A stretch of DNA of 64,000 bases from an uncultured delta proteobacterium (GTDB lineage: Bacteria; Myxococcota_A; Polyangia; Fen-1088): assembly GCA_963824555.1 (NCBI GenBank), contig CAWGPW010000007.1:26186-90185 (forward strand). Direction: 5' to 3'. Positions 553 to 46,539 of this stretch are shown piece after piece. The notes beneath the pieces are model-generated. The model worked only from the letters and a program-made list of their open reading frames with translations. It ran no database searches and was not told the origin of the DNA. Within the stretch, counting starts at the first letter, position 1; each line of letters starts with the position of its first letter. The translations under genes and the position numbers were made by a program.

Positions 553-1026
553 TTAGTAGCGCAGCCCCAAGGCTTTGCCATAGGGACGAGTCTGTATTTT
601 TTCGGCGAGCAACCGGGCATCGCGGATGTTGGCGACGCGTGCGGGGTTCTCTAGAAGCAATCGAAGTACATCAGCCGCAGGCAGCCATCGGTAGCTCTCC
701 AAGACCGTGGCCGTCCGCCTGCGAGCTGGTATCTTGGGGTCATGTCGCTGCATGGTCGCGTTCAAGGTGGCCGAATCATCATTCAGGAACTTGTCAATCT
801 CCCGGAGGGGACCGAGGTTCGCCTCGAGATTATCGAGCAGGAGGACGACCGCGATGGACTCGACGACAAGGATCGGGCTCGCCTCGAAGCCGCGATGGAC
901 GAAGACTGATAGGAGACTCAGGTACGAACCTGCCCGCTGTAGAGTTGGCCCATGGATTACTCCCATCGCCATTCTTCCTGCCTCGCGCGTTACAATCGCA
1001 GCGCCAACGAGCAACTGCTCGGCCAT
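553..1026 (-). CDS. Hypothetical protein, family not recognised, in a visibly lower-GC patch
   Basis: 157-aa ORF from the track (…LREIDKFLNDDSATLNATMQRHDPK…VLRLLLENPARVANIRDARLLAEK…). Its first ~25 codons are antisense to the DinB remnant, so the real start may be the internal MAMGVIHG. The call is weak. Confidence 0.3.
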   Translation of the reverse strand: MAEQLLVGAAIVTREAGRMAMGVIHGPTLQRAGSYLSLLSVFVHRGFEASPILVVESIAVVLLLDNLEANLGPLREIDKFLNDDSATLNATMQRHDPKIPARRRTATVLESYRWLPAADVLRLLLENPARVANIRDARLLAEKIQTRPYGKALGLRY

Positions 1027-1207
1027 CTGGCAGCCTAACGACTTGCGCGGCCATCCCAGGCGCTACTACGTTGGGGACGCTCTCGACCACATGTTCAACC
1101 ACCACACGCACCACCGCGGCCAAGTCTCGCAAATCCTCGACGAGATGGGCGTTGCCCGCGATTTCTCGAACCTCATCAGCGTGGCGAAGATCCCGGCGGG
1201 AGCGTAG
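952..1207 (+). pseudogene. DinB-family (DinB/YfiT-like metalloenzyme) remnant, internally deleted and frameshifted
   Basis: ATG 952 opens MDYSHRHSSCLARYNRSANEQLLGHLAA*, the DinB helix-1 pattern Y-N-x-x-A-N. After a +1 shift near 1036 it reads NDLRGHPRRYYVGDALDHMFNHHTHHRGQVSQILDEMGV…*, which carries the HxxxHHRGQ motif. That is only ~85 codons against ~150-170 in intact family members. Confidence 0.55.
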
Positions 1208-1298
1208 CGAATCAGAAAAGCTTGGACGCCCGCGCCAGCCGTGGTGCGGCCAGAAGTTCAGGGAATTCCGGAACCTGACGAAGCCGTGTTGAAGCTGC

Positions 1299-2589
1299 AT
1301 GTTCCGCCTCCCAACAGGTCACCCAGAGCTCGTCTTGGGTCTTCTCGTCATCGTGGGCGGCTGCTCGGTAGACCTCAGCAAGTTGCGCGTCAAGAAAGGG
1401 CTTGATTCGGGTAGCGCATCGGAGGTTGCTCCGTACTTCGGCGATATGTTTATCCAGGATGCACAGGACGATTCTGGTCTCGACCGCGGCGGTCGACGCC
1501 TGGACAGACGCCAATGTGAACTCCGACAGCGTGCCGGTCCCCACGCAGGACGGTCGGAGCGAAGGCGATGTGACTTCTTCGGTTGGGGGAGACGTCGGTG
1601 GAGGAGGTGGCGGAGCGGGAGGAGGAGGTGGTGGTGCGGCCGATATGGGGGGAGCCGGAGGAAGAGGCGATGCTCTGGGCTTTGATGCCGGAATTTGGGT
1701 ACTGGCCGACGCTCCCCCAAGTTCGGAAGCCGACGCCCGCGACGTCGGCGACGTCTCTAGCGCCGAAATGGGCGCGGACACTCTTGGCCATGACGATGCC
1801 AGTGGCAAGGACGACGTGGCTGGCGGAACCGATAGCCTTGACCTCACTGCGGGGACCGATGGACTGTTGCCCGGCACCGGCGGATTGACGGGCACGGGCG
1901 GAGCGACGGGCACGGGCGGTGTAACGGGCACGGGCGGAGTGACCGGTACGGGCGGAGTAACGGGCACGGGTGGGACAACAGGCTCGGGCGGAATCGCTGG
2001 CTGCGGCGCCACCCAATCGACCTTTTCGCAGACCTACTCGTTCGCAACCGGACTTGGCGCCCTGACACTCAACCGCGATGTAATGCCGGGCGCCCAACTA
2101 ACATTCGTGACCGCTGGTCCCACCTCCAATCCAGCCCTCTGCTCGGCAAGCGCAGGCTGTGCGGCCTTGTCCGTGCCCTACGCCACTGGAACATCTGTGT
2201 CGGCCGGGTGGGCTACCGCCTATGAGACCTTCTCGCCAAGGGCAAGTCTGCTTGGAGCAACGGTCACCCTCAGCATTGCCGTCGACAATCCTGGCACCAA
2301 AGTGCCGATCCAGATTCAAGCCTTCGCCCTGGGAGATCAAAGCACGAACTACAGTGCGACAACGCCCACAACCGCGAGTGGGTCTGGTTTGACCGCTTAT
2401 GCGCCGATCAACGGGTTCAACGACATCAGTTTGGTGATTACGGATCATATAGGCTCGCCGGGCACCTTTTGCGCCTCGGCCACGGCCTTCATCGGGCTGG
2501 AAGTCCAGAGCACGACAGCAATCACCAGTGCGAATCCTGGCATGGTGACCGTGTACATTCGTCGCATCACCGTCACGCCACCGCCCTAG
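1299..2589 (+). CDS. Secreted (lipo)protein with an acidic/Gly-rich tether and a C-terminal beta-rich domain of unknown family; 5' end possibly frameshifted
   Basis: ORF 1402..2589 has (GGxTGTGG)n repeats followed by a ~200-aa domain ending …MVTVYIRRITVTPPP. There is no signal peptide in that frame. ORF 1299..1685 starts MFRLPTGHPELVLGLLVIVGGCSVD (lipobox-like) and would join at ~1485 if one C were removed. The 3' two-thirds is confident; the 5' end is speculative. Confidence 0.6.
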
Positions 2590-2634
2590 CTCTGGCCTAA
2601 AGTTCTGGCACAACACTTGCAGTTCGAGTCCCAC

Positions 2635-3171
2635 ATGAAGGTGCGCCTCACGTTTGTCACTTGGTCCGTGCTCTTTGCCGTTGTCGCCCCATCACGCGCC
2701 GAAGAGCCCATGCCTGCACCTGTCGCCGTATCGGAGCCGACCTCGCCGCCTTCCGACCGGCATTTCGTGGAAATAGAAGTAGGGAGTACGTCGCCCATGG
2801 CCTTGGTCTACCGTTATCGGCTCTTCCACCCCCTCTTCGTGGAAGTGGGCGGATTCGGCGCTCCCGAAGCTCTTGCGATATTCACTGGCGGGATCATCGT
2901 GGCGCTCCACCAATCAGACCGGCTGATGGTCTATAGCGGTGTGGGTGCCAGCGCTTGTTTGGTCGGTGATACATCGCTCTACTTCTTGTATGGCCGAGTC
3001 GGGTTGGGCGTGAAGCTAGGGACCAGCCGACGACAGATGCTTTCGGCCGACATCGGTGTGTGGTCGGGATTGCATCGCAAATACGACCACGAAACCGGCG
3101 CGACAACGACCGACGAACGCTTCACCATCCCGATGGCCGGCCTTTCCTACGGCGTCGGCTTTGGTCTCTAG
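2635..3171 (+). CDS. Small secreted protein, probable outer-membrane beta-barrel
   Basis: MKVRLTFVTWSVLFAVVAPSRAEE is a signal peptide. It is followed by alternating hydrophobic strands (…LYFLYGRVGLGVKLG…IPMAGLSYGVGFGL*). Confidence 0.7.
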   Translation: MKVRLTFVTWSVLFAVVAPSRAEEPMPAPVAVSEPTSPPSDRHFVEIEVGSTSPMALVYRYRLFHPLFVEVGGFGAPEALAIFTGGIIVALHQSDRLMVYSGVGASACLVGDTSLYFLYGRVGLGVKLGTSRRQMLSADIGVWSGLHRKYDHETGATTTDERFTIPMAGLSYGVGFGL

Positions 3172-3591
3172 GAAATCAGGCAACTATCGTATTCGACGTC
3201 TTCGCCATCGCCTCGCACTATCACCCAGGCTTCGTGCGAGCCTGGTGTTCGACGCGAGACCCTGGCTACCCACTGTCGCGTCCGCGACTGTCGCCATGAC
3301 AACAAACCGGGGTGCGCGGTGAAGGAAGCCATCCGCACCGGCGATGCGCCTGAGGATCTCCGCTTCGAACATGTGGGCCATACGTGAGCCGGTGCGCGCC
3401 ACGGGACCTGTTCCACCTTCCGAGCCGCCAGCAAGGAGGCCGTCACCCGTTGGGCCGAAGCGACGCGGGGAGGCGCTAAGCGCCTTGACGGCCACCGGAG
3501 CGGCAGCTCGGCGGCCACGCCATCGCTTGGCAATCACCCGAACGCGAGATGAACCAGCGAGAGCGTGTCTGCTCGACTTGATGGGATTTGT

Positions 3592-26068: not shown

Positions 26069-26680
26069 ATGATTGAAAGCAATGCAAATGCCATTGTTCC
26101 CATCGCCCTGTCTCGTGCAACGGTTGGCTCGTGGCTCTCGACGTCGCCTCTGCCTCGCTTCGAGAACATCTACAAACAATTCTTCGACTTCGTGTGGTCC
26201 TCGGTCAGACACTTTGGCGTCGAAAGAGATGCCGTCGACGATGTGGTTCAAGATGTCTTCGTCGTGATCCATGCCAAGCTTGCCACGCTGCAACGGCCGG
26301 AGTCTCTACGGAGCTGGATCTACGGCATCGTACGCCGCACCGCGAGCGACCACCGGCGGTCAAGGCGGACGAGAGATGCCGCGCATGCGAGGCTCGGCAC
26401 CGAGCTCAAGTGGAGTCAGCCGGCCCGACCATCGCCTTTCGAGCTGGCCGAGAGGAATGCCGAGCTGGACCTGCTCGAGAGCATCCTGGCGGACATCGAT
26501 GAACCTAAACGGGAGATCTTCGTAATGGTGGAGGTTCTAGGCATGACAGTCCCGGAAGCGGTTCAAGCACTCGTGATACCCCTGAACACCGCCTATTCCA
26601 GGCTTCGGTTGGCGAGGCTGTCCTTCGAGAAAGCACTCGCCGAGCGTGAAGCGCTCGCCGATGCGAAGCAGCCTTCGTGA
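26069..26680 (+). CDS. ECF RNA polymerase sigma factor (no adjacent anti-sigma gene)
   Basis: …ERDAVDDVVQDVFVVIHAKL… is region 2. …MTVPEAVQALVIPLNTAYSRLRLAR… is region 4. Confidence 0.85.
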   Translation: MIESNANAIVPIALSRATVGSWLSTSPLPRFENIYKQFFDFVWSSVRHFGVERDAVDDVVQDVFVVIHAKLATLQRPESLRSWIYGIVRRTASDHRRSRRTRDAAHARLGTELKWSQPARPSPFELAERNAELDLLESILADIDEPKREIFVMVEVLGMTVPEAVQALVIPLNTAYSRLRLARLSFEKALAEREALADAKQPS

Positions 26681-35794: not shown

Positions 35795-37849
35795 CTACTT
35801 CCCGTACCCGGCCGCCACGATGTTCGCTTGCACCGCGTCTTCCACCGCATCCGTTGGGTAGCCGGTGACAATCGCACCTTCGAAGAAGATTCCCGAGCTG
35901 GCATTGGAGCCACAACCCGCGCACGGCTTGCAACAGTCGCCACCGCAGCCGAGGATGAGGGCACCTTGTTTCTTCATCGGGCTCCATCCTCCGGGGAGGG
36001 CACCTTTGTAGTAGGTGCTCAGGCTGCCGGTGGTCGCGTCGCTGCCCCTGAGTGCGTATTCCGTCGTACCATTGTTCTTCAGGACGGCGGTGACGAACGG
36101 GGCTGTCTGGGTTGGATCGTTCGCATTCTTGCTGGTGCTGCCTTGGGCGAAGAGTCCGTACTCGAGATCGGCCATCACCCACGGACCGGATCCCGACCCC
36201 GAGCCCCAGGCCGTGGTGGTGCTGAAGTTGAGAGAATCCATGGCACCGGCTCCATCGGCACTTCGGTCGGTTTCGCTGTTGCCATAGTCGAAGCAACACC
36301 CCGCGTTGGCGTGCCTGCTACTCGTCACCATGTACATCCCCTCGGGTTGGCTACCGGTTGCCATGCCTGACGAGGAACCGTCGTGCCAATAGCAATTTCC
36401 TGGACTGATATAGACCGAGTAAACCTTGTGCCCGCCGACGTTCACCGGATCGGTGGTTGCCTTCGCAGGGACGCTCGACGCTGGAGCGGGGACCTGGGTC
36501 GATCCCTGGTACCATAGGTCGTTTCCTTTCCCAGACTGGTCGTAGACCACGGTGAGGACACAGGTAGAACCGGCGCAGAACGTATCTTCGGGCGCTGTGT
36601 CGGCGATGCCACCAGGCGCCAGGGGCAAGATGTCCTTCGTGGTGTTGTCCGAGCGCCGGACCTGATAGAGCTTCCCGTTGTAGGCGCCGTAGAGTGCCCG
36701 CACCACACTGTGCGCGGCAACGCATGGCGCATTGGCGGCCGCATAAATATCGCAAGGCCCCGTGGTGCCGCCGGAGGCGGCGGACCCGCCTGAGCCGTTC
36801 ATTCCGCCCGAAGCGCTCTGCCCCGCTGCCCCGCCTGAGCCGCTCGTGCCACTGGCCCCGGCCAAGCCACTGCCCCCCGAACCACCCTGTCCCGTTGCAC
36901 CGCCGGCACCGCCCGAACCAGTGACGCCGCCCGCGCCGCCCGTGCCGCTCCTGCCCCCTACACCGGCCTGCCCAGTTGATCCGCCTACGCCTCCCAGGCC
37001 GGTGGCACCGCCTGCGCCACTCCTGCCACCCGAACCGACCTGCCCGCCGCTACCGGTCGCGCCGCCCGAACCCGTGTTGGCGCTCTTCTGGAGCACGATG
37101 GTTCCTGTCATGGTCGGCTTTGTACTCTGAGGGGTCATGGTCATCTGGTTTCCCGAAACGCAGTACGAGTACTTCGTGTCGCCCGAGTCGCCCGTGAGGG
37201 TCACCACGTTGTCGGAGATCGTGTAATTGCCGCTTGTCGACGGCGCCATGGACAGGAGCCCAATCCCGCCCGTCTGTTTCGCGATGGCCGAGCAGTCGCA
37301 CCCGCCGCCCGCAGCAGACGGGCAATCGAGCGAGGCATAGCCTAGGACGCTGGCTAGGAGGTTCGCCGCGCCGTCGCAGGTGACGGGTGTAGACGAAATC
37401 ACCAGGCAAGACGCCGCCAACGTGATCTGCTCGTCGCCCGTCGTGACCGTGTTGTCCGTATAGGTCCCGTTTGAGTTGGCGATCCACGTCCCACTTGTCT
37501 GGAGGGACCCCGTGACCGGCCCGGACGGGCAACCCGCACCAACCAACGACAGGTCCAGCTCGCCCGTCACCTTCAAACACGACGGCGTCACGGTCCAGGT
37601 TCCGACCACATCGCCACCGCATGGTGCCACGTCGGGCGTCACGTCGGAGCAGGACGCTCCGCCGCTGCCGGAGCTTCCGCCCACCTGTCCGCCACTGCTG
37701 GAGCTTCCACCGGTACCTTTGGCGCCCCCGTTGCTGCTGCTGCCGCCGCTCCCTGTTCCCCCGCCGCCGGAGCTTTGTTTACAGCCAGCGCTCACCATGG
37801 TCGAGGCGATCACCAACGCGCTTACGAGCCCGACAAGTATGCTTCGCAT
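35795..37849 (-). CDS. GH54 alpha-L-arabinofuranosidase lipoprotein with an extra N-terminal Cys-containing domain between two Gly-rich tethers
   Basis: GGGAGG RBS, then MRSILVGLVSALVIASTMVSAGC. The order is tether, ~190-aa unknown domain, second tether, then PCDIYAAANAPCVAAHSVVRALYGAY…CCFDYGNSETD…GPWVMADLEYGLF…VQANIVAAGYGK. The last part is the arabinofuranosidase B catalytic-domain pattern. Confidence 0.9.
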   Translation of the reverse strand: MRSILVGLVSALVIASTMVSAGCKQSSGGGGTGSGGSSSNGGAKGTGGSSSSGGQVGGSSGSGGASCSDVTPDVAPCGGDVVGTWTVTPSCLKVTGELDLSLVGAGCPSGPVTGSLQTSGTWIANSNGTYTDNTVTTGDEQITLAASCLVISSTPVTCDGAANLLASVLGYASLDCPSAAGGGCDCSAIAKQTGGIGLLSMAPSTSGNYTISDNVVTLTGDSGDTKYSYCVSGNQMTMTPQSTKPTMTGTIVLQKSANTGSGGATGSGGQVGSGGRSGAGGATGLGGVGGSTGQAGVGGRSGTGGAGGVTGSGGAGGATGQGGSGGSGLAGASGTSGSGGAAGQSASGGMNGSGGSAASGGTTGPCDIYAAANAPCVAAHSVVRALYGAYNGKLYQVRRSDNTTKDILPLAPGGIADTAPEDTFCAGSTCVLTVVYDQSGKGNDLWYQGSTQVPAPASSVPAKATTDPVNVGGHKVYSVYISPGNCYWHDGSSSGMATGSQPEGMYMVTSSRHANAGCCFDYGNSETDRSADGAGAMDSLNFSTTTAWGSGSGSGPWVMADLEYGLFAQGSTSKNANDPTQTAPFVTAVLKNNGTTEYALRGSDATTGSLSTYYKGALPGGWSPMKKQGALILGCGGDCCKPCAGCGSNASSGIFFEGAIVTGYPTDAVEDAVQANIVAAGYGK

Positions 37850-38019
37850 GAGACCTCCCATGTAGCCTGTCGATAGGAGCCCACTTGTGTAACGGAATCT
37901 GGCCTATCCTTCGCCGACTCCCAATCCTGCTTCAATGGTGAGGGTCATGGAGCTGTGTGTTGCACTGCCCTTCCCGCGGGCTCGAAATCCTGAAGATGGC
38001 CGGATCGACGGCGTCAGGT

Positions 38020-39054
38020 TCATCGCGCGGCTGCCGTCGCCTCTTCTAAGACGACCTCCGAGGCGGCCTTGTCCTCGCGCAAGCCGAGAAAAGTAGAATG
38101 GCGAAGCAAACCGTCCTGGGTGAATCCCGAGAAGGAAACCTCGGCCACGAGCTCGGGCTTGACCCAGTGGACAGCGCGCGCCTCGGCGCCGGTCGGCGCA
38201 TGCACGAGATCGGGTTGCTGGTCGCGCAGGAAAGAAAGCTTGGTGTGGAGGGTGCACAGAGAATTTTCGCTGAACCCGGTGCCGACACGTCCTCGGTACA
38301 CGAGCTTCCCTCCCGTGTGCGTGGCCAACAACAGCGCCCCGAGAAGCGTGCGCGAGCCCTTCGGATCGGTGAACCCTACCACGACAAACTCCTGGCGCTG
38401 GCTGCACTTCGTCTTCAACCAACTGCGGCTGCGCCCCGAGCGATAGGGCGCGTCCAGTCGTTTGGAGACGATTCCCTCCAGACCCATGCGGGCCGCCTGG
38501 GCGAGAAAGGCCGGTCCTTGCCCAATCACGTGGTCGCTCAGGCGAATCGTGTTGGCGAAGGGAGGTGGAACGCGGGTGAGCAACTCCGCCAGCAACGCCT
38601 TGCGCTGGGCAAGGCCCATGGCTTGCAGATCGACGCCGTTCAAGTACAGCAAGTCGAATGCGAAGTAGACGAGGAGAGCGTCGCGCGCGCCACCCAGCGC
38701 GTCCTGCAGGCGCTGGAAATCGCTCACCCCACGCTCGTCGAGGACGACCATCTCGCCGTCGAGCAAGACTGTCTCGGCCGGGATGCTTTCCGCTGCTTTC
38801 GCCAAAGTGGGCATGCGATTCGTCCAGTCGTTCCCTCGGCGCGAAAGCAGCGTCGCCTTGCCTCGCTTGACGCTCGCCAGGATGCGGTAGCCGTCGAATT
38901 TGATCTCATGCAGCCAGTCTTGTCCGGACGGGGGTGCGTCCGCGAGGGAGGGCAACTCGGGCTCGATCCGCTCGGGCAATGGCCCAATGGTCGCGCCGGA
39001 AGCCTTCGCAGCGTCGGTGCCGTATTTGCGACTTTTGGAGGGCGCGCCCGTCAT
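38020..39054 (-). CDS. Standalone ATP-dependent DNA ligase (LigD-type ligase domain with OB fold)
   Basis: Motif I WLHEIKFDGYR, motif III LLDGEMVV, motif IV LEGIVSK and motif V SWLKTKC are all intact. Confidence 0.9.
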   Translation of the reverse strand: MTGAPSKSRKYGTDAAKASGATIGPLPERIEPELPSLADAPPSGQDWLHEIKFDGYRILASVKRGKATLLSRRGNDWTNRMPTLAKAAESIPAETVLLDGEMVVLDERGVSDFQRLQDALGGARDALLVYFAFDLLYLNGVDLQAMGLAQRKALLAELLTRVPPPFANTIRLSDHVIGQGPAFLAQAARMGLEGIVSKRLDAPYRSGRSRSWLKTKCSQRQEFVVVGFTDPKGSRTLLGALLLATHTGGKLVYRGRVGTGFSENSLCTLHTKLSFLRDQQPDLVHAPTGAEARAVHWVKPELVAEVSFSGFTQDGLLRHSTFLGLREDKAASEVVLEEATAAAR

Positions 39055-39064
39055 GGTCGACGTC

Positions 39065-41233
39065 TCACCCGCGCCCGCGCTCGAGAGCTGCTCGCGCGGC
39101 CTTGATCTTGGCCGCGGTCAGTTTCTGGCGGACACTCCCGTAGCTCGCCCAGGGATCCTGTTCCGGGTACCAGCGGTCGACATCGCCGACGTGAAATGCG
39201 TCGTCGCGGGTTCCGAATCCCAGGGCATCCCATGCCACCGGCACCGAGACCGTCGCGGCTGGTTGTGCGCGCGACGAAAAGACGCTGACCGAGGTCGCGC
39301 CCCGGCGATTGCGAAGGTAGTCGACGAAGATCTTGTCGGTGCGGGGGGCCTTGGCCAAGCCGGCGGAGAAGCGCGCTGGCTCGTAGCGCGCCAGCGCCTG
39401 GGCCATGACCCGTGAAAACTCGAGCGTGTCCTCCCAAGTCGCGGCAGGGGTCAGGGGAACGACCACGTGCAAGCCCTTGCCGCCGGTGGTCTTGACGAAG
39501 CTCGCGAGATCGAGCGTCTCGAGCACGTCGCGCACGCGCCTCGCGCCGTCGACGATGTCCGACCACGGAACCTCCGGCCCTGGGTCGAGATCGAAGACGA
39601 TCCGGTCGGGCCGCTCGAGGTCGCGGGTGCGGGCGTTCCAGGGGTGGATCTCGAGGACGTTCATCTGCGCCAGGGTGACGAGGCCGCGCACATCGTCGAC
39701 GATCATGGCGGTGCCCGCGCCCGTGCCGCCGATGATCTCGAATTGCCTCAGCTCGGGCGGCGCCCAATCGCCGGCGTGGCGGACGAAAAAGCGCTGGCCG
39801 CCCATGCCGTTCGGAGCGCGTACCAGGGTCAACGGCCGGTCTACCAGGTGGGGCAGCATGCGCTCGCCGATGCGTTCGTAAAAGCGCGCGAGGTCGAGCT
39901 TGGTGATGCCGACGTCGGGATAGAGCATCCGCCCGGGGTGGGTCAACTTCACGCCCGCGATGCGCGGTTGGTTCAACGCCGGCTTGTCGGCCAGCTTCGG
40001 CGATGCCTCCGCCACGGACGCATCCCTGCCCTTGCTCGCGCCGTTCGTTCGGCAGCGGACGATTCGCCAGGCCGATGCGGGCGGCGGATAGCGGCTGTCG
40101 ACCTTCTTCGACACGATCCCCGCCGCGCCAAGTGCGCAGGCCTGGACGAAGATCTCGCGCCCTCGCCCCACGACATGGTCCGCGAAACGCAGCGCCGGCT
40201 CGGCCTTTACAACCAGGGAAGCGAGCGCGGATTTCCGTTCGCCGAGCGGAACCCGGGTCAGGTCGTGGCCGTCCAAATACGGCAGATCGATCGCGTACAG
40301 CGTGTCGGCCGGGCCATCCGCCCCCGAATGTCCGTCCGGTCGCAACGCCGTGGCGATGCCGTCGATCAAAGCCTGGCCTACGGGCAGGCTCCGGACCGCG
40401 CCGACCACGCCCACGAGCGCGGACGTGCGATCGTGCCCGTCGGCGCCGAGCAGTTGAACGCGTCCCCCATCCACGCGGGCCACGACCCGTTCGCCCACGA
40501 TCTCGATCTCGTGCAGCCACTCGTCCCCGTCGGGGACCGTGCGCGCGAGCCTGGGTCGCGCCGGGCGGATCCCTTCCGGCATCGGCGCCGCGCGAGCACC
40601 TAGCAGTGCGCCGGCGTCGCTCCGCCCGCGGTTGGAATGCCAGACGCGGTCGGAGGCCGCGGCGATGGCGTCCAGATCGCGCCCCGTAACCACGCTTTCG
40701 GGGCGAGCCTCGGTCACGCTCCATTCGGCCTCGGGACGCGCGTGCTCGTCGCGATCCTTGACCAGCAGCCAGCTCCGGTCGTCGCTACCGTGGCCGGCCC
40801 GCCCGCGTGCCTTCAACCGGACCAGTGCCCAGCGTCCGCGCAGCTTCTCGCCAAGCAGCTCGAACTTGAGGTGGCCGCTGGCGAGGCCCGCCCCCGGATC
40901 GAACAGCGGCTTCCACGTTCCCTTGTCCCACAGCAACACCGTGCCACCGCCGTATTGACCGGCGGGGATGATGCCCTCGAATCCACCGTAGTCGATGGGA
41001 TGATCCTCCACCGCGACCGCCAACCGCTTGGCCGAGGGATCGAAGCTCGGCCCCTTGGGAATGGACCAACTCTTGAGAACGCCGTCGAGCTCGAGGCGAA
41101 AATCGTAGTGCAATTGGCGCGCGGCGTGCTTCTGCACCACGAAGCTCCGGCCCGTCGGCGTCGCGCCCACGCGGGCCGGGGGCTCGGCCGTGACCGTGAA
41201 GTCGCGCTTGCGCTTGTACTCGTCGAGTGCCAT
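39065..41233 (-). CDS. ligD: Multidomain LigD: phosphoesterase, degenerate ligase-like module, polymerase/primase
   Basis: The N-terminal PE domain reads FVVQKHAARQLHYDFRLELDGVLKSWSIPKGPS…. The middle module has WLHEIEIVGER where KxDG is expected. The C-terminal Pol domain reads …FFVRHAG…IVFDLDPGP…FVKTTGGKGLHVVVPL…. Confidence 0.9.
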   Translation of the reverse strand: MALDEYKRKRDFTVTAEPPARVGATPTGRSFVVQKHAARQLHYDFRLELDGVLKSWSIPKGPSFDPSAKRLAVAVEDHPIDYGGFEGIIPAGQYGGGTVLLWDKGTWKPLFDPGAGLASGHLKFELLGEKLRGRWALVRLKARGRAGHGSDDRSWLLVKDRDEHARPEAEWSVTEARPESVVTGRDLDAIAAASDRVWHSNRGRSDAGALLGARAAPMPEGIRPARPRLARTVPDGDEWLHEIEIVGERVVARVDGGRVQLLGADGHDRTSALVGVVGAVRSLPVGQALIDGIATALRPDGHSGADGPADTLYAIDLPYLDGHDLTRVPLGERKSALASLVVKAEPALRFADHVVGRGREIFVQACALGAAGIVSKKVDSRYPPPASAWRIVRCRTNGASKGRDASVAEASPKLADKPALNQPRIAGVKLTHPGRMLYPDVGITKLDLARFYERIGERMLPHLVDRPLTLVRAPNGMGGQRFFVRHAGDWAPPELRQFEIIGGTGAGTAMIVDDVRGLVTLAQMNVLEIHPWNARTRDLERPDRIVFDLDPGPEVPWSDIVDGARRVRDVLETLDLASFVKTTGGKGLHVVVPLTPAATWEDTLEFSRVMAQALARYEPARFSAGLAKAPRTDKIFVDYLRNRRGATSVSVFSSRAQPAATVSVPVAWDALGFGTRDDAFHVGDVDRWYPEQDPWASYGSVRQKLTAAKIKAARAALERGRG

Positions 41234-41297: not shown

Positions 41298-42005
41298 GTG
41301 AAGACCTGGATCGGAACCAGCGGCTTCAGCTACCCCGCGTGGCGCGGAAGCTTCTACCCGGCGAAGATGCCGCCGGCGAAGATGCTGGCGTATTACGCCG
41401 AGCGCCTGACGACCGTCGAGATCAACAACACCTTCTATCGCATGCCCAAGGCCGAGATGCTGGCGGCCTGGGCCGCGACGACGCCGGCCGCGTTCCGCTT
41501 CGCGCCCAAGGCGCCGCAACTGATTACGCACCGACAGAAACTGGCCGGCGCGGCCGACGCCCTCGCCTATTTCCTGAAGGCGCTCTCGTCGTTCGGGGAG
41601 AAACTGGGGCCCATCCTGTTTCAGCTGCCGCCGTTCTTGCGCAAGGATGTCCCGCGCCTTGCGGACTTTCTCGCACTCTTGCCCCGCGAAACCCGCGCCG
41701 CCTTCGAATTTCGCCACCCCTCTTGGTTCGACGATGCCGTCTACGAGACCCTGCGCGCGCACGGCGCGGCCCTGTGCGTCGCCGACGCCGAGGAGCTGGC
41801 CACGCCGTTCGTGCCCACGGCATCGTGGGGTTACTTGCGCCTGCGCCGCACCGACTACGACGACGCCGCGCTTGCGGCCTGGGCCAAGAAGCTCGCAGCG
41901 CTGGAGCCCACCTGGGCCGACGCATTCGTCTACTTCAAGCACGAGGACGCGGGCCTCGGCCCGAAGCTCGCCGCGCAGTTCGTGGAAAAACTGTCCCAAG
42001 GTTGA
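41298..42005 (+). CDS. DUF72 (YecE-like) family protein
   Basis: AGGAG RBS and a GTG start. VKTWIGTSGFSYPAWRGSFYP…YYAERLTTVEINNTFYRMP…ILFQLPPF…FEFRH.SW… is the DUF72 signature. Confidence 0.85.
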   Translation: MKTWIGTSGFSYPAWRGSFYPAKMPPAKMLAYYAERLTTVEINNTFYRMPKAEMLAAWAATTPAAFRFAPKAPQLITHRQKLAGAADALAYFLKALSSFGEKLGPILFQLPPFLRKDVPRLADFLALLPRETRAAFEFRHPSWFDDAVYETLRAHGAALCVADAEELATPFVPTASWGYLRLRRTDYDDAALAAWAKKLAALEPTWADAFVYFKHEDAGLGPKLAAQFVEKLSQG

Positions 42006-43159: not shown

Positions 43160-45316
43160 CTAGGGCGGCGCTGGCCCTTCGGTCGGTGATGATGCGGGCT
43201 CGGCAGTCAGCAGGCGGGACAGGGTCATCCGCAAGTCGCGTAGTTGATAGGGTTTGGGCAGACTGCCGTCGAATCCGAACTCCTGCGGGCGGGCCAGCAC
43301 ATCGTCACCGGCATAGCCGCTCGAGGCCAGCACGCGAATCGTGGGATCCAGCCGTTTGAGCCGGTGAACCGTTTCCTTGCCGCCCGGGCCGCCCGGGATC
43401 GTGATGTCGAGGATGGCGGCGCGAAAGGGCCGGCCCGCGGCCAGGGCCGCGCTGGCCAGGTCCACAGCCTGCTGCGAGCTCTTGGCTTCAATCGATTGGT
43501 AGCCACAGCGGTGCAGCATGGCGCTGGCGACCTTCAGCACGAAATCCTCGTCGTCCATGACCAGCACCTGACCATGCCCCCCGTCGCCTTCGCTGGTGGA
43601 CGCATCCGAGCTCGCGATCGTGCTCGCCGCCCGCGGTAGCCAGACGTGGAACACGGAACCAACCCCCAGCTCCGATTCAACCTCGATGTGACCGTCGTGC
43701 TTGCGCACGATGGAATAGCTGGTGGCCAAGCCGAGCCCGCTGCCTTGCGCCTTGGTGGAAAAGAACGGATCGAAGATGCGCGGCTGGTGCTCACGTGGGA
43801 TGCCGACGCCGTGGTCGTGGATGGAGACGTGCACGTGGTCCGCGGCGGGCAGGTGCGCGGGCATGGCCGCCGAAGGAACATTCCTTATCCGCACCTCGAT
43901 GCGTCCACCGTCCGGCATGGCTTGCTTGGCGTTGATGACCAGGTTGTCGACAACCTGACCCATCTGGTTTTCGTCAACACTGGACAGCCATTTCGTCTTC
44001 TCGAAATCGAAAGACGCCTCGCAGTTCGATCCGGTGGTCGCGAAAGTGACGGACTTCCGCACCAGCTCGCCCACGTCTTGGATCTTGCGCAGGGGCGCCC
44101 CCCCCTTGGCGAAGGTCAGAAGTTGCTGGGTCAGGGCGCGGGCGCGGCCGGAAACCGAGAGCGCATCGCGCACGTTCTCCTCTGCTTCCTTGATGGTACG
44201 CTCGCGCAAGGCCTCCTTGGCCAATTCGAGATGGCCGAAAACACCCGCCAGAAGATTGTTGAAGTCGTGGGCGATGCCGCCGGCCAACACGCCCAGCGCT
44301 TCCAAACGCTGCGCCCGGCGCAAGACATCCTCCATGGCTTGTTTGGCGGTGACGTCCACGAGGGCACTGATGACACATGTCTCTTGACCGACGACGAACA
44401 CGCTCGAGGACAGGAGAACACGGATGATGGTGCCATCCTTGCGGCGAACATCCCCCTCGACCCCGCGCACGGTCTGTCGCTCCGCGAGCTCAGCCGCCAT
44501 ACGCTGGCGCAGAGAGGGATCGACCCAGAAATTCAAGTCGTCCTGCAATGCGCTGCGACCCAAAATCTCGTCCAGGACGTAGCCGGTCAGGGACAGGAAC
44601 GCATCGTTGGCCTTGAGGCACAGGCCGTCCGACAAGCGCGAGATCAGCAACGCATTGGGGCTGAGACGGAACATGGTCACGAAGCGCTCCTCGCTGCTGC
44701 GCAGGGCCTCCTCGCTCCGCTTGCGATCGGTGATGTCTCGCACGGCGGCCACGACGTATCGCTGGCCGCCCTCCGAGCCCGCGCCCAAGCTCACCTCGAC
44801 CCAAAAACAACTTCCATCACGACGTTGTGCGCGCCATTCGAAGCGTTGCGCCCCCTGCGCGACGCTCTCGTTCAGCCACTCCATGGCGCGACTCTGAGAG
44901 TAGCCCGTTTCATTGTCGGAGATCTCGCCGATGGACATGCCGATGAGCTGTTCGTGCGCGTAGCCGTAGATCTCGCAGGCGTGCTGGTTGCAATTCAAGA
45001 TGCGGCCCGACTGGGCCTCGTGGACGAAAATGGCCTCGTTCACCGTATTGTAGATGGCCTTGAGCTGCTCGGCGCCAGCCTTCATCGAGGCTTGTCGCTC
45101 CTCGATGGCGTGGTCACGTCGCCGGAGCGCCCCGTACAGTAGCAACGCCGTCGTGGCCACGAAGAGCCAGCCCTTGCTGGTACTCAGCTCCTCCACCACG
45201 GTGGGATCCCTCGAGATGCGGCTCACCAAGTGGTCGGAGGACACGATCCACAGTGCGGAAACGACGACGTAGGCTCCGACGATAAGTCGCAGATTGGAGC
45301 GCAGTGAGTCCTTCAT
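43160..45316 (-). CDS. Hybrid sensor histidine kinase / response regulator (2 TM, 2 PAS, HisKA, HATPase, REC)
   Basis: Starts MKDSLRSNLRLIVGAYVVVSALWIV…. Has PAS-like segments, the H-box GGIAHDFNNLL, G-boxes DHGVGIP…GSGLGLA, and a C-terminal receiver VLVMDDE…AAILDITIPGG. Confidence 0.9.
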   Translation of the reverse strand: MKDSLRSNLRLIVGAYVVVSALWIVSSDHLVSRISRDPTVVEELSTSKGWLFVATTALLLYGALRRRDHAIEERQASMKAGAEQLKAIYNTVNEAIFVHEAQSGRILNCNQHACEIYGYAHEQLIGMSIGEISDNETGYSQSRAMEWLNESVAQGAQRFEWRAQRRDGSCFWVEVSLGAGSEGGQRYVVAAVRDITDRKRSEEALRSSEERFVTMFRLSPNALLISRLSDGLCLKANDAFLSLTGYVLDEILGRSALQDDLNFWVDPSLRQRMAAELAERQTVRGVEGDVRRKDGTIIRVLLSSSVFVVGQETCVISALVDVTAKQAMEDVLRRAQRLEALGVLAGGIAHDFNNLLAGVFGHLELAKEALRERTIKEAEENVRDALSVSGRARALTQQLLTFAKGGAPLRKIQDVGELVRKSVTFATTGSNCEASFDFEKTKWLSSVDENQMGQVVDNLVINAKQAMPDGGRIEVRIRNVPSAAMPAHLPAADHVHVSIHDHGVGIPREHQPRIFDPFFSTKAQGSGLGLATSYSIVRKHDGHIEVESELGVGSVFHVWLPRAASTIASSDASTSEGDGGHGQVLVMDDEDFVLKVASAMLHRCGYQSIEAKSSQQAVDLASAALAAGRPFRAAILDITIPGGPGGKETVHRLKRLDPTIRVLASSGYAGDDVLARPQEFGFDGSLPKPYQLRDLRMTLSRLLTAEPASSPTEGPAPP

Positions 45317-45513
45317 GGCGGGCGTCCGGCTTCCGAGTGTACTCCGACCTTTGCCGCGCTGCCGAGGGGAACCACGCACGGGTAGACAGGTGAAATCGTG
45401 TCGCTGCCAACCCCGCAGCCCGGACTGCATTTCCGCCGTAGCGCTGCCGGGGGTCTGGTGGGTATCATAACCCGATGAAGACTTGCGGCTTCTCTCGTCG
45501 GCAGAAGGATCCC

Positions 45514-46539
45514 ATGCGGAGATTTTGCGCCCTCGCGGCTGGGCTTCTCGCCTCGCTTGCGTTCGCGACGGGCGTGCATGCCAAGACCGTCGAGTACCTC
45601 TCGCAGCACCCGGTGCCGCACAAGTACGGGGGCGGCTTCTGCAACATCGAGGTTCCCCACGTGCACAACTATCCCCCTGACGATCCACGCATGTACCGCG
45701 AGACCAACGGCCAGCTCTACTTCGTCGGGGATCCTGCCCCCTTCGGCTACGATGGTCCACGCTATACGTACTACGGCGCCCATCCCGTGGTCGATGCCGA
45801 GGTTCGATTCGGTCGTCCGGTCTATTGCTACATCAAGGGTCCCCACTACCACTGGTACCAGCCGCCAGCCCAGGCCCAGTTCCAACTGTCGGGAGGGGCC
45901 TACTGGTACGTGGGCAGCTTTCCGCCCGCCTACTACGACGATCGGCCGCGCTACGCTGCAATCAACGATGCCTACGCCCCCTTGCCCTACACACGCCCCG
46001 TGGTCGACGTTCAGGTCGCGCCACCCTCGGTGCGCGCGGAGATCTCCATCGGTGGACCGGGCTGGCGGGCCAGCGCCGTGGTGGGCGGACCGCCCGCGCC
46101 CGGCTATGTGGCTCCGCCGCCGCCCCCGCCCGGACCGGCCCTGCAGATCGGCGTCGGCATCAACCTGGGTGGGCCGCCGGTGGTCGGCGGTCCCATGATC
46201 GAACGCCGCGAGATCATCGAAGACCGGCGCGACCACGACCACGGACGGCACGAGGGATGGCGAGAGCCGCCGCGTTTTCGCGACCACGGCCACCGTCCGG
46301 CGCCGGCCCGCTATGCGCCGGTCCGCGCCCCCGTCACCGCGCCCCTGTTGCATCGCGCAGAGCCGCGGCGGCCGGGTCCAAGCCCTCGCTTTGCTCCGGC
46401 AACCGCGCCGATGCGCGGCCCCGCCCCGAACCAACCAAGACGCGGCCCTGCCCCGACCCAACCCGGTCACGCCATGGGCCCGCCCACGCGCGGTCCAGCG
46501 CCGACGGCGCTGGCGAAGCACGACGACCGCCATCGTTGA
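45514..46539 (+). CDS. Secreted protein with two copies of a CxIxxPHxH module and a Pro/His/Arg-rich tail
   Basis: MRRFCALAAGLLASLAFATGVHA (signal peptide). The two copies are FCNIEVPHVHNYPP…YFVG…YDGPRY and YCYIKGPHYHWYQPP…YWYVG…YDDRPRY. The tail reads RRDHDHGRHEGWREPPRFRDHGH…. Confidence 0.75.
   Translation: MRRFCALAAGLLASLAFATGVHAKTVEYLSQHPVPHKYGGGFCNIEVPHVHNYPPDDPRMYRETNGQLYFVGDPAPFGYDGPRYTYYGAHPVVDAEVRFGRPVYCYIKGPHYHWYQPPAQAQFQLSGGAYWYVGSFPPAYYDDRPRYAAINDAYAPLPYTRPVVDVQVAPPSVRAEISIGGPGWRASAVVGGPPAPGYVAPPPPPPGPALQIGVGINLGGPPVVGGPMIERREIIEDRRDHDHGRHEGWREPPRFRDHGHRPAPARYAPVRAPVTAPLLHRAEPRRPGPSPRFAPATAPMRGPAPNQPRRGPAPTQPGHAMGPPTRGPAPTALAKHDDRHR

Follow-up and report, generated by a model that had tools for sequence, protein, structure and literature searches.

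A LigD-derived protein with a predicted inactive ligase domain and a separately encoded LigD-type ligase in uncultured Polyangia

LigD is usually treated as a self-contained multi-tool, with its ligase domain as the defining activity. Here, we describe a locus at which a LigD-derived protein carries a ligase module predicted to be catalytically dead and at which an intact ligase is encoded by the next gene. The locus lies in a stretch of 64,000 nucleotides (hereafter the window; positions 26,186 to 90,185 of the forward strand of contig CAWGPW010000007.1, assembly GCA_963824555.1) from an uncultured delta proteobacterium (Myxococcota_A, Polyangia, Fen-1088). The first gene encodes a protein of 722 amino acids (aa) made up of a 3'-phosphoesterase domain (PE), a module related to the nucleotidyltransferase (NTase) domain of ATP-dependent DNA ligases, hereafter called pNT, and a primase-polymerase domain (Pol). 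The second gene encodes a ligase of 344 aa. The features of the two genes are as follows.

39065..41233, minus strand: gene of the 722-aa LigD-derived protein (PE, predicted dead NTase module pNT, Pol); open reading frame (ORF) and translation, Pfam, NCBIfam, AlphaFold2
40664..41233, minus strand: PE domain, aa 1-190; PF13298, TIGR02777, Foldseek
40046..40600, minus strand: pNT pseudo-ligase NTase domain, aa ~212-396; partial TIGR02779 match, fold, alignment
40502..40504, minus strand: codon of Glu244, at the motif I lysine position; alignment to 1vs0 and to 26 active domains
39914..40045, minus strand: linker of ~44 aa in place of the OB domain; low predicted local distance difference test (pLDDT) score, no OB profile match
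39068..39913, minus strand: Pol domain, aa 441-722; PF21686, TIGR02778, Foldseek
39065-39067, minus strand: TGA stop codon of the 722-aa gene
39055..39064, minus strand: spacer of 10 nucleotides between the two genes; direct sequence reading
39052-39054, minus strand: ATG of the 344-aa ligase gene
38020..39054, minus strand: gene of the stand-alone 344-aa LigD-type ATP-dependent DNA ligase (NTase and OB); TIGR02779, PF01068, PF04679

The order phosphoesterase, ligase-like module, polymerase had been read from the letters of the window in an original prediction for 39065..41233, and Pfam, NCBIfam and Foldseek all recover it. PE matches PF13298 (141.7 bits over aa 34-139) and TIGR02777 (212 bits). 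Its catalytic set of His, Asp, Arg, His and Tyr is present (H36, H42, D44, R46, H78, and Y82), and these residues are invariant or almost so in the family alignment. With Foldseek, the domain matches the PE domain of P. aeruginosa LigD, 3n9b, with a template modelling (TM) score of 0.95-0.97. Pol matches PF21686 (279.7 bits over aa 444-695) and TIGR02778 (296 bits), carries the DxD metal-binding motif (D548 and D550, nearly invariant) and resembles the Pol domain of P. aeruginosa LigD, 2fao, with a TM score of 0.90. Among the features that define LigD, the 722-aa protein thus displays a PE domain with its metal- and phosphate-binding residues and an AEP primase-polymerase domain with its catalytic aspartates, and it is devoid of the ligase NTase motifs and of the OB domain (PF04679, motif VI). 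Judged from its sequence, the protein has the requisites for end healing and gap filling and not those for adenylylation. It may be viewed as approximately a LigD minus the ligase; strictly, it would not count as a LigD, two defining features being absent, the motif I lysine and the OB domain.

The pNT module is homologous to ligase NTase domains. Its Pfam match is only partial (PF01068, 27.6 bits, aa 312-386), its TIGR02779 score is 83 bits for a cut-off of 227.75 (aa 230-385, profile positions 7-175 of 302), and it shares 36% identity over 205 residues with the neighbouring ligase (E = 7e-36). The segment WLHEIEIVGER aligns on WAFEGKWDGYR of the M. tuberculosis LigD ligase domain 1vs0, thereby placing Glu244 (codon 40502-40504) at the position of the adenylatable lysine. 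This replacement had been pointed out in the original prediction, together with the change of motif III from LDGE to IDGI and that of motif V to WRIVRC; the first is borne out by the alignment to 1vs0 and by multiple alignments, and the two others by multiple alignments. With respect to active motifs, EIEIVGER stands for EIKFDGYR, AGIVSK for EGIVSK, and WRIVRC for WLKTKC. A lysine overlooked through misalignment was considered and ruled out, since pairwise, profile, multiple, and structural alignments agree that motif I has none. The absence of an OB domain after the module, also claimed beforehand, stands as well: the 722-aa protein gave no match to PF04679 and none to a custom-built OB profile.

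With scoring restricted to the middle module, 94 proteins were retrieved. Those labelled P0003-P0068 are devoid of PF04679; they are mostly 700-780 aa long, with in addition a group of 434 aa made of PE plus the module. P0069-P0094 are canonical LigDs of 810-916 aa carrying PF04679. We compared, column by column, 67 OB-less relatives (P0001 and P0003-P0068, clusters at 90% identity) with 26 active, OB-bearing ligase domains (P0002, which is the 344-aa ligase of the window, and its homologues P0069-P0093). Residues replaced in pNT are the Lys, Asp, and Tyr of motif I, the Arg of motif Ia, the Glu of motif III, the adenine-stacking Phe of motif IIIa, the Glu of motif IV, a conserved Arg located before motif V, and both lysines of motif V. 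In the 722-aa protein, the motif I lysine is E244 and the motif I Asp is Val; Ile is found for the Glu of motif III and for the Phe of motif IIIa, Ala for the Glu of motif IV, and Ile and Arg for the lysines of motif V. Framework residues are retained (W239, E242, G247, R249, D291, D316, R333, K334, K376, Y382, W389, and C394). The column of the motif I lysine is occupied by E (in most cases), A, T or D in 67 of 67 OB-less sequences and by K in 26 of 26 OB-bearing ones. Moreover, the replacement motifs EIEIVGER, DG[VI]ATA, xGIVSK, and WRxVRC are shared by all 67 OB-less clusters, and KxDGxR, DGE, EGxxxK, and WxKxK are found in all 26 OB-bearing sequences. On the basis of these motifs, the ligase module is predicted to be catalytically dead and no ligase activity is expected for the 722-aa protein.

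The ligase encoded by the next gene matches TIGR02779 with 345.3 bits over positions 2-301 of 302, PF01068 with 104.6 bits, and PF04679 with 89.8 bits. Its motifs are intact (EIKFDGYR, LLDGEMVV, FAFDLLYLNG, EGIVSK, and SWLKTKC). It therefore belongs, end to end, to the LigD ligase-domain type, with motifs I, III, IIIa, IV, and V plus OB, in agreement with the earlier claim that a complete ligase with motifs and OB region lies at 38020..39054, ten nucleotides downstream of the first gene. The possibility of a single frameshifted gene for four domains was rejected, since the two genes are in different reading frames in the window, as read directly from the sequence, and are separate ORFs in relatives. 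The assembly from which the window comes, a metagenome bin of 6.48 Mb in 44 contigs with a completeness of 84.6%, contains exactly two ATP-ligase domains, pNT and the neighbouring 344-aa ligase.

The pNT family is not restricted to this assembly. The named sources of the family proteins are "Polyangia bacterium" metagenome bins; all being bins, no cultured carrier was found among them. A profile search of 1.84 billion representatives at 50% identity gave 25,873 ligase-domain hits; among the best 150 of them, motif I is without its lysine in at least 25; of these 25, 16 have the organization PE-NTase-Pol or PE-NTase. One protein, P0195 (362 aa), is a stand-alone NTase-OB ligase with motif I WLHEIEYDGYR, in which Glu occupies the lysine position and motif I is otherwise retained, as is the OB domain; an early stage of inactivation or a sequence error may account for it.

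The gene arrangement of the window was also looked for, as had been suggested, in 40 related genomes, and it recurs. All of these are metagenome bins, so that claims of absence are soft. PE-pNT-Pol occurs in 8 of 13 genomes of the same genus. In six of the eight, an intact ligase gene is directly downstream (G000, G001, G003, G005, G008, and G010), and in the two others it is elsewhere in the genome (G006, locus L118; G011, locus L113). Two-domain PE-pNT proteins are found in other genera of the family (L105, L110, and L111). Their genomes, G018, G013, and G022, respectively, have separate Lig-Pol genes (L104, L119, and L121), and G022 has in addition a stand-alone NTase-OB ligase (L120). Among the genomes examined, every one found to hold a pNT protein has at least one intact ligase. 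Across the loci analysed, motif I is dead in 19 of 19 domains of the main OB-less clade and in one further protein, L109 (see below), and the lysine is present in every NTase domain having an OB domain.

A scan of a genome collection with a pNT profile was dominated by canonical LigDs, because the pattern DLLYLDG is common to both kinds of protein. Out of 80 loci, nine are OB-less with a dead motif I (L003-L006, L009, L014, L016, L022, and L049). The profile score was tried as a classifier of dead and active domains and dropped, an intact ligase reaching 188 bits and divergent dead domains 162-169 bits; the classification was made instead by motif and OB status. The PE-pNT genes of L006, L014, and L022 (each coding for 434 aa) and of L016, from other genera, are located beside a prolyl-tRNA synthetase-like gene and not beside ku. 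In the long-read bins of L003/L087 and L088, two frames are needed to read the Pol region of the PE-pNT-Pol gene, probably because of an assembly error of the homopolymer type rather than because the gene is a real pseudogene.

The original prediction had called the module vestigial, and both selection and fold speak otherwise. Ratios of nonsynonymous to synonymous substitution rates (dN/dS) were obtained by simple pairwise Nei-Gojobori comparisons of the window with six orthologues, two comparisons only being available for the stand-alone ligase, with dS values of 0.5-1.9 and the more distant pairs near saturation. By segment, they are 0.06-0.17 for PE, 0.20-0.30 for pNT, 0.26-0.82 for the linker, 0.11-0.26 for Pol, and 0.13-0.26 for the ligase. 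Thus, the linker that replaces OB is the least constrained segment and pNT is about as constrained as the live ligase. Modelled alone with AlphaFold2, pNT gives a pLDDT of 92.8 and a predicted TM score (pTM) of 0.88. Its top Foldseek matches are structures of the M. tuberculosis LigD ligase (6nhx, 6nhz, and 1vs0; TM 0.78-0.81), with a root-mean-square deviation of 2.3-2.8 Å over ~188 columns. Hence, the NTase fold is predicted to be intact. The full-length AlphaFold2 model of the 722-aa protein has a mean pLDDT of 90.5, with a disordered stretch at aa 398-419 (pLDDT 35-39), and its three parts match 2fao (Pol), 3n9b (PE), and 1vs0 (M. tuberculosis LigD ligase). With homology to and the fold of its parent, lost catalytic residues, and purifying selection, pNT has the features of a pseudoenzyme domain, its inactivity being predicted from the sequence. 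Taken with the conservation of the substituted motifs and the single, fully supported clade described below, these results lead us to infer that pNT is a maintained pseudoenzyme domain, not debris.

The history of the module was examined with a tree of 78 NTase domains (IQ-TREE, LG+C20). All 19 OB-less domains taken from the genomes fall into a single clade (support 100/100) with a stem of ~0.5 changes per site, which indicates that the main family stems from one old inactivation. This clade, on its long stem, is placed outside all active domains and not beside the adjacent ligase. The ligase of the window is joined to those encoded at the adjacent position in L003 and L004 (100/99), and its link to a canonical LigD of the same genus is weak (82/82). 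In the PE tree, a matching clade unites the domains of all pNT proteins, with a value of 100 in the Shimodaira-Hasegawa-like approximate likelihood ratio test (SH-aLRT). A second loss is represented by L109 (G037:C122), an OB-less, lysine-less PE-NTase-Pol protein from another Polyangia family, with motif I ELGHEGLR and only seven residues between its NTase and Pol domains. L109 nests among canonical Polyangia LigDs in the NTase tree (100/99), as it does in the PE and Pol trees, showing that this loss was independent. Its genome has ku followed by a stand-alone ligase (L108, G037:C172).

An origin by duplication followed by subfunctionalization had been proposed from the two genes of the window. 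In support of this idea, Pol of PE-pNT-Pol is sister to Pol of the Lig-Pol proteins of the same family (SH-aLRT 98), which fits an ancestral LigD duplication followed by complementary domain loss. The NTase tree, on the other side, does not pair pNT with its adjacent ligase. In approximately unbiased (AU) tests, for which the groupings were named after the tree had been seen, sisterhood of pNT with the window-type ligase (p = 0.27) or with the Lig-Pol-type ligase (p = 0.40) was not rejected, and the grouping of pNT with both ligase types together was (p = 0.013). Duplication and subfunctionalization are thus a plausible origin of the arrangement, as far as sequences can tell.

Upstream of the ligD-derived gene, two genes of opposite orientation complete the locus.

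41298..42005, plus strand: YecE-like DUF72 gene, lying upstream of ku and transcribed away from ligD; PF01904, 222 bits
42133..43092, plus strand: ku gene, with its start set at Met33 of the listed ORF; PF02735, 182.8 bits

Ku is encoded at the same position in L003 and L004, with 87-91% identity to Ku of the window, and the arrangement around ku recurs in L003, L004, and L116. With ku next door and conserved synteny, the locus is one of Ku-dependent non-homologous end joining (NHEJ). The position of DUF72 between ligD and ku is kept in L003, L004, L086, L088, L089, L090, and L116. In L114, from another Polyangia family, a canonical LigD lies between DUF72 and ku, at the position occupied by the 722-aa protein in the window, which suggests that the ancestral occupant of the site was a complete LigD. 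A computational study predicted that Tm1631, a DUF72 member, is a DNA repair enzyme resembling endonuclease IV (PMC3828134), and DUF72 may be an accessory protein cleaning ends in NHEJ.

The reading that we consider likely for this soil myxobacterium is that of a split Ku-dependent NHEJ, in which sealing is outsourced to a separate ligase and pNT serves as a scaffold or docking module. The 722-aa protein, as a descendant of LigD, would process ends with its intact 3'-phosphoesterase and primase-polymerase and would not seal them, since its central domain is devoid of the adenylatable lysine and of the residues contacting ATP, metal, and the nick, and has no OB domain behind it. Sealing would be performed in trans by the separately encoded 344-aa LigD-type ligase; from the layout of the two genes, they are probably co-transcribed. 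The pNT domain would keep PE (and Pol) within the repair complex, through contacts with the C-terminus of Ku and/or with DNA, which by analogy would be its most likely partners. Indeed, in M. tuberculosis, the C-terminus of Ku touches both the Pol and the ligase NTase domains of LigD, and mutations of the NTase surface alter Ku affinity, DNA binding and polymerase rate and leave intrinsic ligation unaffected (PMC13717202). Ku and DNA are also favoured as partners because pNT stays on PE even where Pol is on another protein, and because the partner ligases are heterogeneous. The occurrence of PE-pNT proteins without Pol further means that pNT goes with PE and does not merely separate PE from Pol. 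The suggestion that the dead module survives as a structural or DNA-binding spacer is therefore retained as far as non-catalytic retention is concerned, and not for a mere spacer.

Several observations weigh against the split system with a docking pNT. The residues through which M. tuberculosis LigD contacts Ku correspond to S335/A336 and V285 of the 722-aa protein, and the contact positions vary in the family; the conserved framework of the helix that carries them (L330, R333, K334, L337, and L340, invariant) is also common to active ligases. Because of both facts, the support that this helix gives to Ku docking is weak. The full-length model has a pTM of 0.49, without a defined interdomain arrangement; together with the high pLDDT, this value indicates three well-folded domains having no fixed mutual arrangement. 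Moreover, the design is not obligatory for the lineage, since G002 and G007, of the same genus, have a canonical PE-Lig-Pol protein instead. Finally, as the genome is only 84.6% complete, the assembly might have missed a further ligase or a canonical LigD. A further-reaching form of the proposal is possible, although rather doubtful. There, pNT would be an obligatory adaptor rather than a passive scaffold, recruiting the Ku C-terminus and/or the outsourced ligase and gating the action of polymerase and phosphoesterase against sealing. In these myxobacteria, end joining would then rely on three or four proteins, Ku, PE-pNT-Pol, Lig, and perhaps DUF72, with a pseudo-ligase as their organizer. 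If so, together with the independent case of L109, it would point to a general, unrecognized non-catalytic role of the LigD NTase fold in end joining.

Other readings of pNT have to be weighed. Its main partner could be the stand-alone ligase rather than Ku or DNA, with a tether between two paralogues then rebuilding a non-covalent "LigD". The 10-nucleotide spacer, the adjacency of the genes in 6 of 8 genomes of the genus and the presence of an intact ligase with pNT in every genome checked would all suit such a tether. We nonetheless hold it unlikely, because the partner ligases differ in kind (NTase-OB and NTase-OB-Pol) and in tree position, because the ligase is encoded elsewhere in several genomes, and because a single clade made of these ligases and pNT is rejected by the AU test (p = 0.013), against the idea of one co-evolving pair. 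It is improbable that pNT has kept a ligand-binding or catalytic function through non-canonical residues, for instance as a sensor of ATP, AMP or NAD, by binding ends with a 5'-phosphate or a 5'-adenylate, or by working in trans with the OB domain that the 344-aa ligase carries. Mostly aliphatic residues stand in for the adenine-stacking Phe, the ribose-binding Glu, both lysines of motif V and the DNA-binding Arg of motif Ia, all of which are lost. In addition, no new invariant lysine has appeared, the only invariant ones, K334 and K376, being present in active ligases too. The OB domain, required for step 1 of the ligase reaction (self-adenylylation), is missing from the 722-aa protein. What speaks for a function of this kind is that some pocket residues have been kept in every member (R249 of motif I, D291 of motif III, D316 of motif IIIa, K376 of motif IV, and Y382), and that catalytic residues are known to have moved to other positions in some pseudoenzymes.

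Could pNT simply be a decaying remnant with no function of its own, kept since its deletion would disturb the PE-Pol fusion? It does evolve about twice as fast as PE and Pol (dN/dS 0.20-0.30 vs. 0.06-0.26), and the OB half has already been deleted. However, its dN/dS, well under 1, resembles the value of the intact ligase, the replacement motifs have themselves been conserved over 67 clusters, the module forms one old clade with a long history, and its fold is confidently predicted. It is also kept in two-domain PE-pNT proteins, where there is nothing to space. We consider such a remnant quite improbable, and the earlier term "vestigial" does not suit a domain with these properties. As to an artefact of sequencing or assembly, or a pseudogene of recent date confined to one metagenome bin, the 44 contigs of the genome and the Pol-region frameshifts of some related long-read bins (L003 and L088) might raise the question. 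The ORF of the 722-aa protein is however uninterrupted in the window, and the architecture and the substituted motifs recur in dozens of independent assemblies from several data sources, so that the probability of an artefact is practically negligible.

The arrangement can be compared with several known systems. Canonical PE-Lig-Pol LigDs (P. aeruginosa LigD, A. tumefaciens LigD2; PRK05972, TIGR02776) have the same domain order, the same PE and Pol folds and catalytic residues, an NTase fold between these two domains and ku as a neighbouring gene. In contrast, the 722-aa protein has lost motifs I, Ia, III, IIIa, IV, and V, a disordered linker of ~40 aa is found instead of OB, and the ligase function would come from a separate gene. 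According to the summary given in PMC5663958, an M. smegmatis LigD mutant whose ligase function is disrupted still acts in NHEJ, and LigC seals ~20% of the breaks. In this case, a non-ligating LigD provides its other domains and a separate ATP-dependent ligase seals, as proposed for the window; the protein is nevertheless an engineered point mutant with a full NTase-OB module, and LigC is an inefficient backup of its own type. The arrangement of the window, on the contrary, is natural, old and fixed in a clade, with OB gone and a LigD-type partner in the same apparent operon. As in split NHEJ systems (Methanocella paludicola; Streptomyces; "non-conventional NHEJ", PMC7719229), the ligase is on its own polypeptide near the other components. 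However, these systems only separate active domains, and none has been described with a dead copy of the ligase inside the processing protein. Finally, the POL domain of A. tumefaciens LigD1 is truncated and inactive (PMC1920237), another case of a LigD paralogue retaining a catalytically inactive domain. In LigD1, Pol is the domain that is dead, owing to a C-terminal truncation found in a single paralogue of a single species, whereas in pNT proteins it is the ligase NTase, with a full conserved fold and over a whole clade. A full-text literature search found no description of a conserved dead or degenerate ligase domain within LigD, and neither the LigD structural review PMC8656161 nor the comparative survey PMC7719229 mentions one.

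One consequence concerns annotation. The 722-aa protein scores 400 bits with TIGR02776 for an equivalog cut-off of 373, hence annotation pipelines would name it DNA ligase D. The public names of its relatives are "non-homologous end-joining DNA ligase" or "bifunctional NHEJ protein LigD"; despite these deposited names, pNT-bearing relatives are predicted from their motifs not to be ligases. NHEJ surveys relying on domain hits would miscount such proteins as complete LigDs. This applies for example to PMC7719229, in which domains are scored by profile hits only and the text of which does not contain the word "catalytic."

As a conserved, clade-wide design, the arrangement would thus represent a repair machine split by nature, rather than a gene in decay. 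It would offer a natural separation-of-function system, in which a clade keeps the ligase fold in LigD for a use other than ligation, sealing having moved to another polypeptide. It would therefore be a clean system for the non-catalytic roles of the NTase domain, namely Ku docking, DNA binding, and cross-talk with the polymerase, on which work with M. tuberculosis point mutants only begins (PMC13717202).

On both sides of the locus, the next genes are of other kinds.

35795-37861, minus strand: secreted GH54-type alpha-L-arabinofuranosidase gene, with Gly/Ser-rich tethers (flank)
43160-45760, minus strand: PAS-containing hybrid histidine kinase gene (flank)

In the relatives examined, neither of them is conserved beside NHEJ genes. 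A scan for promoters and terminators gave counts no higher than in shuffled sequence. In one relative, L089 (G010), the two genes occupy 814-3012 and then 3016-3558, and the frame of the ligase continues in-frame past the single stop codon of the PE-pNT-Pol gene.

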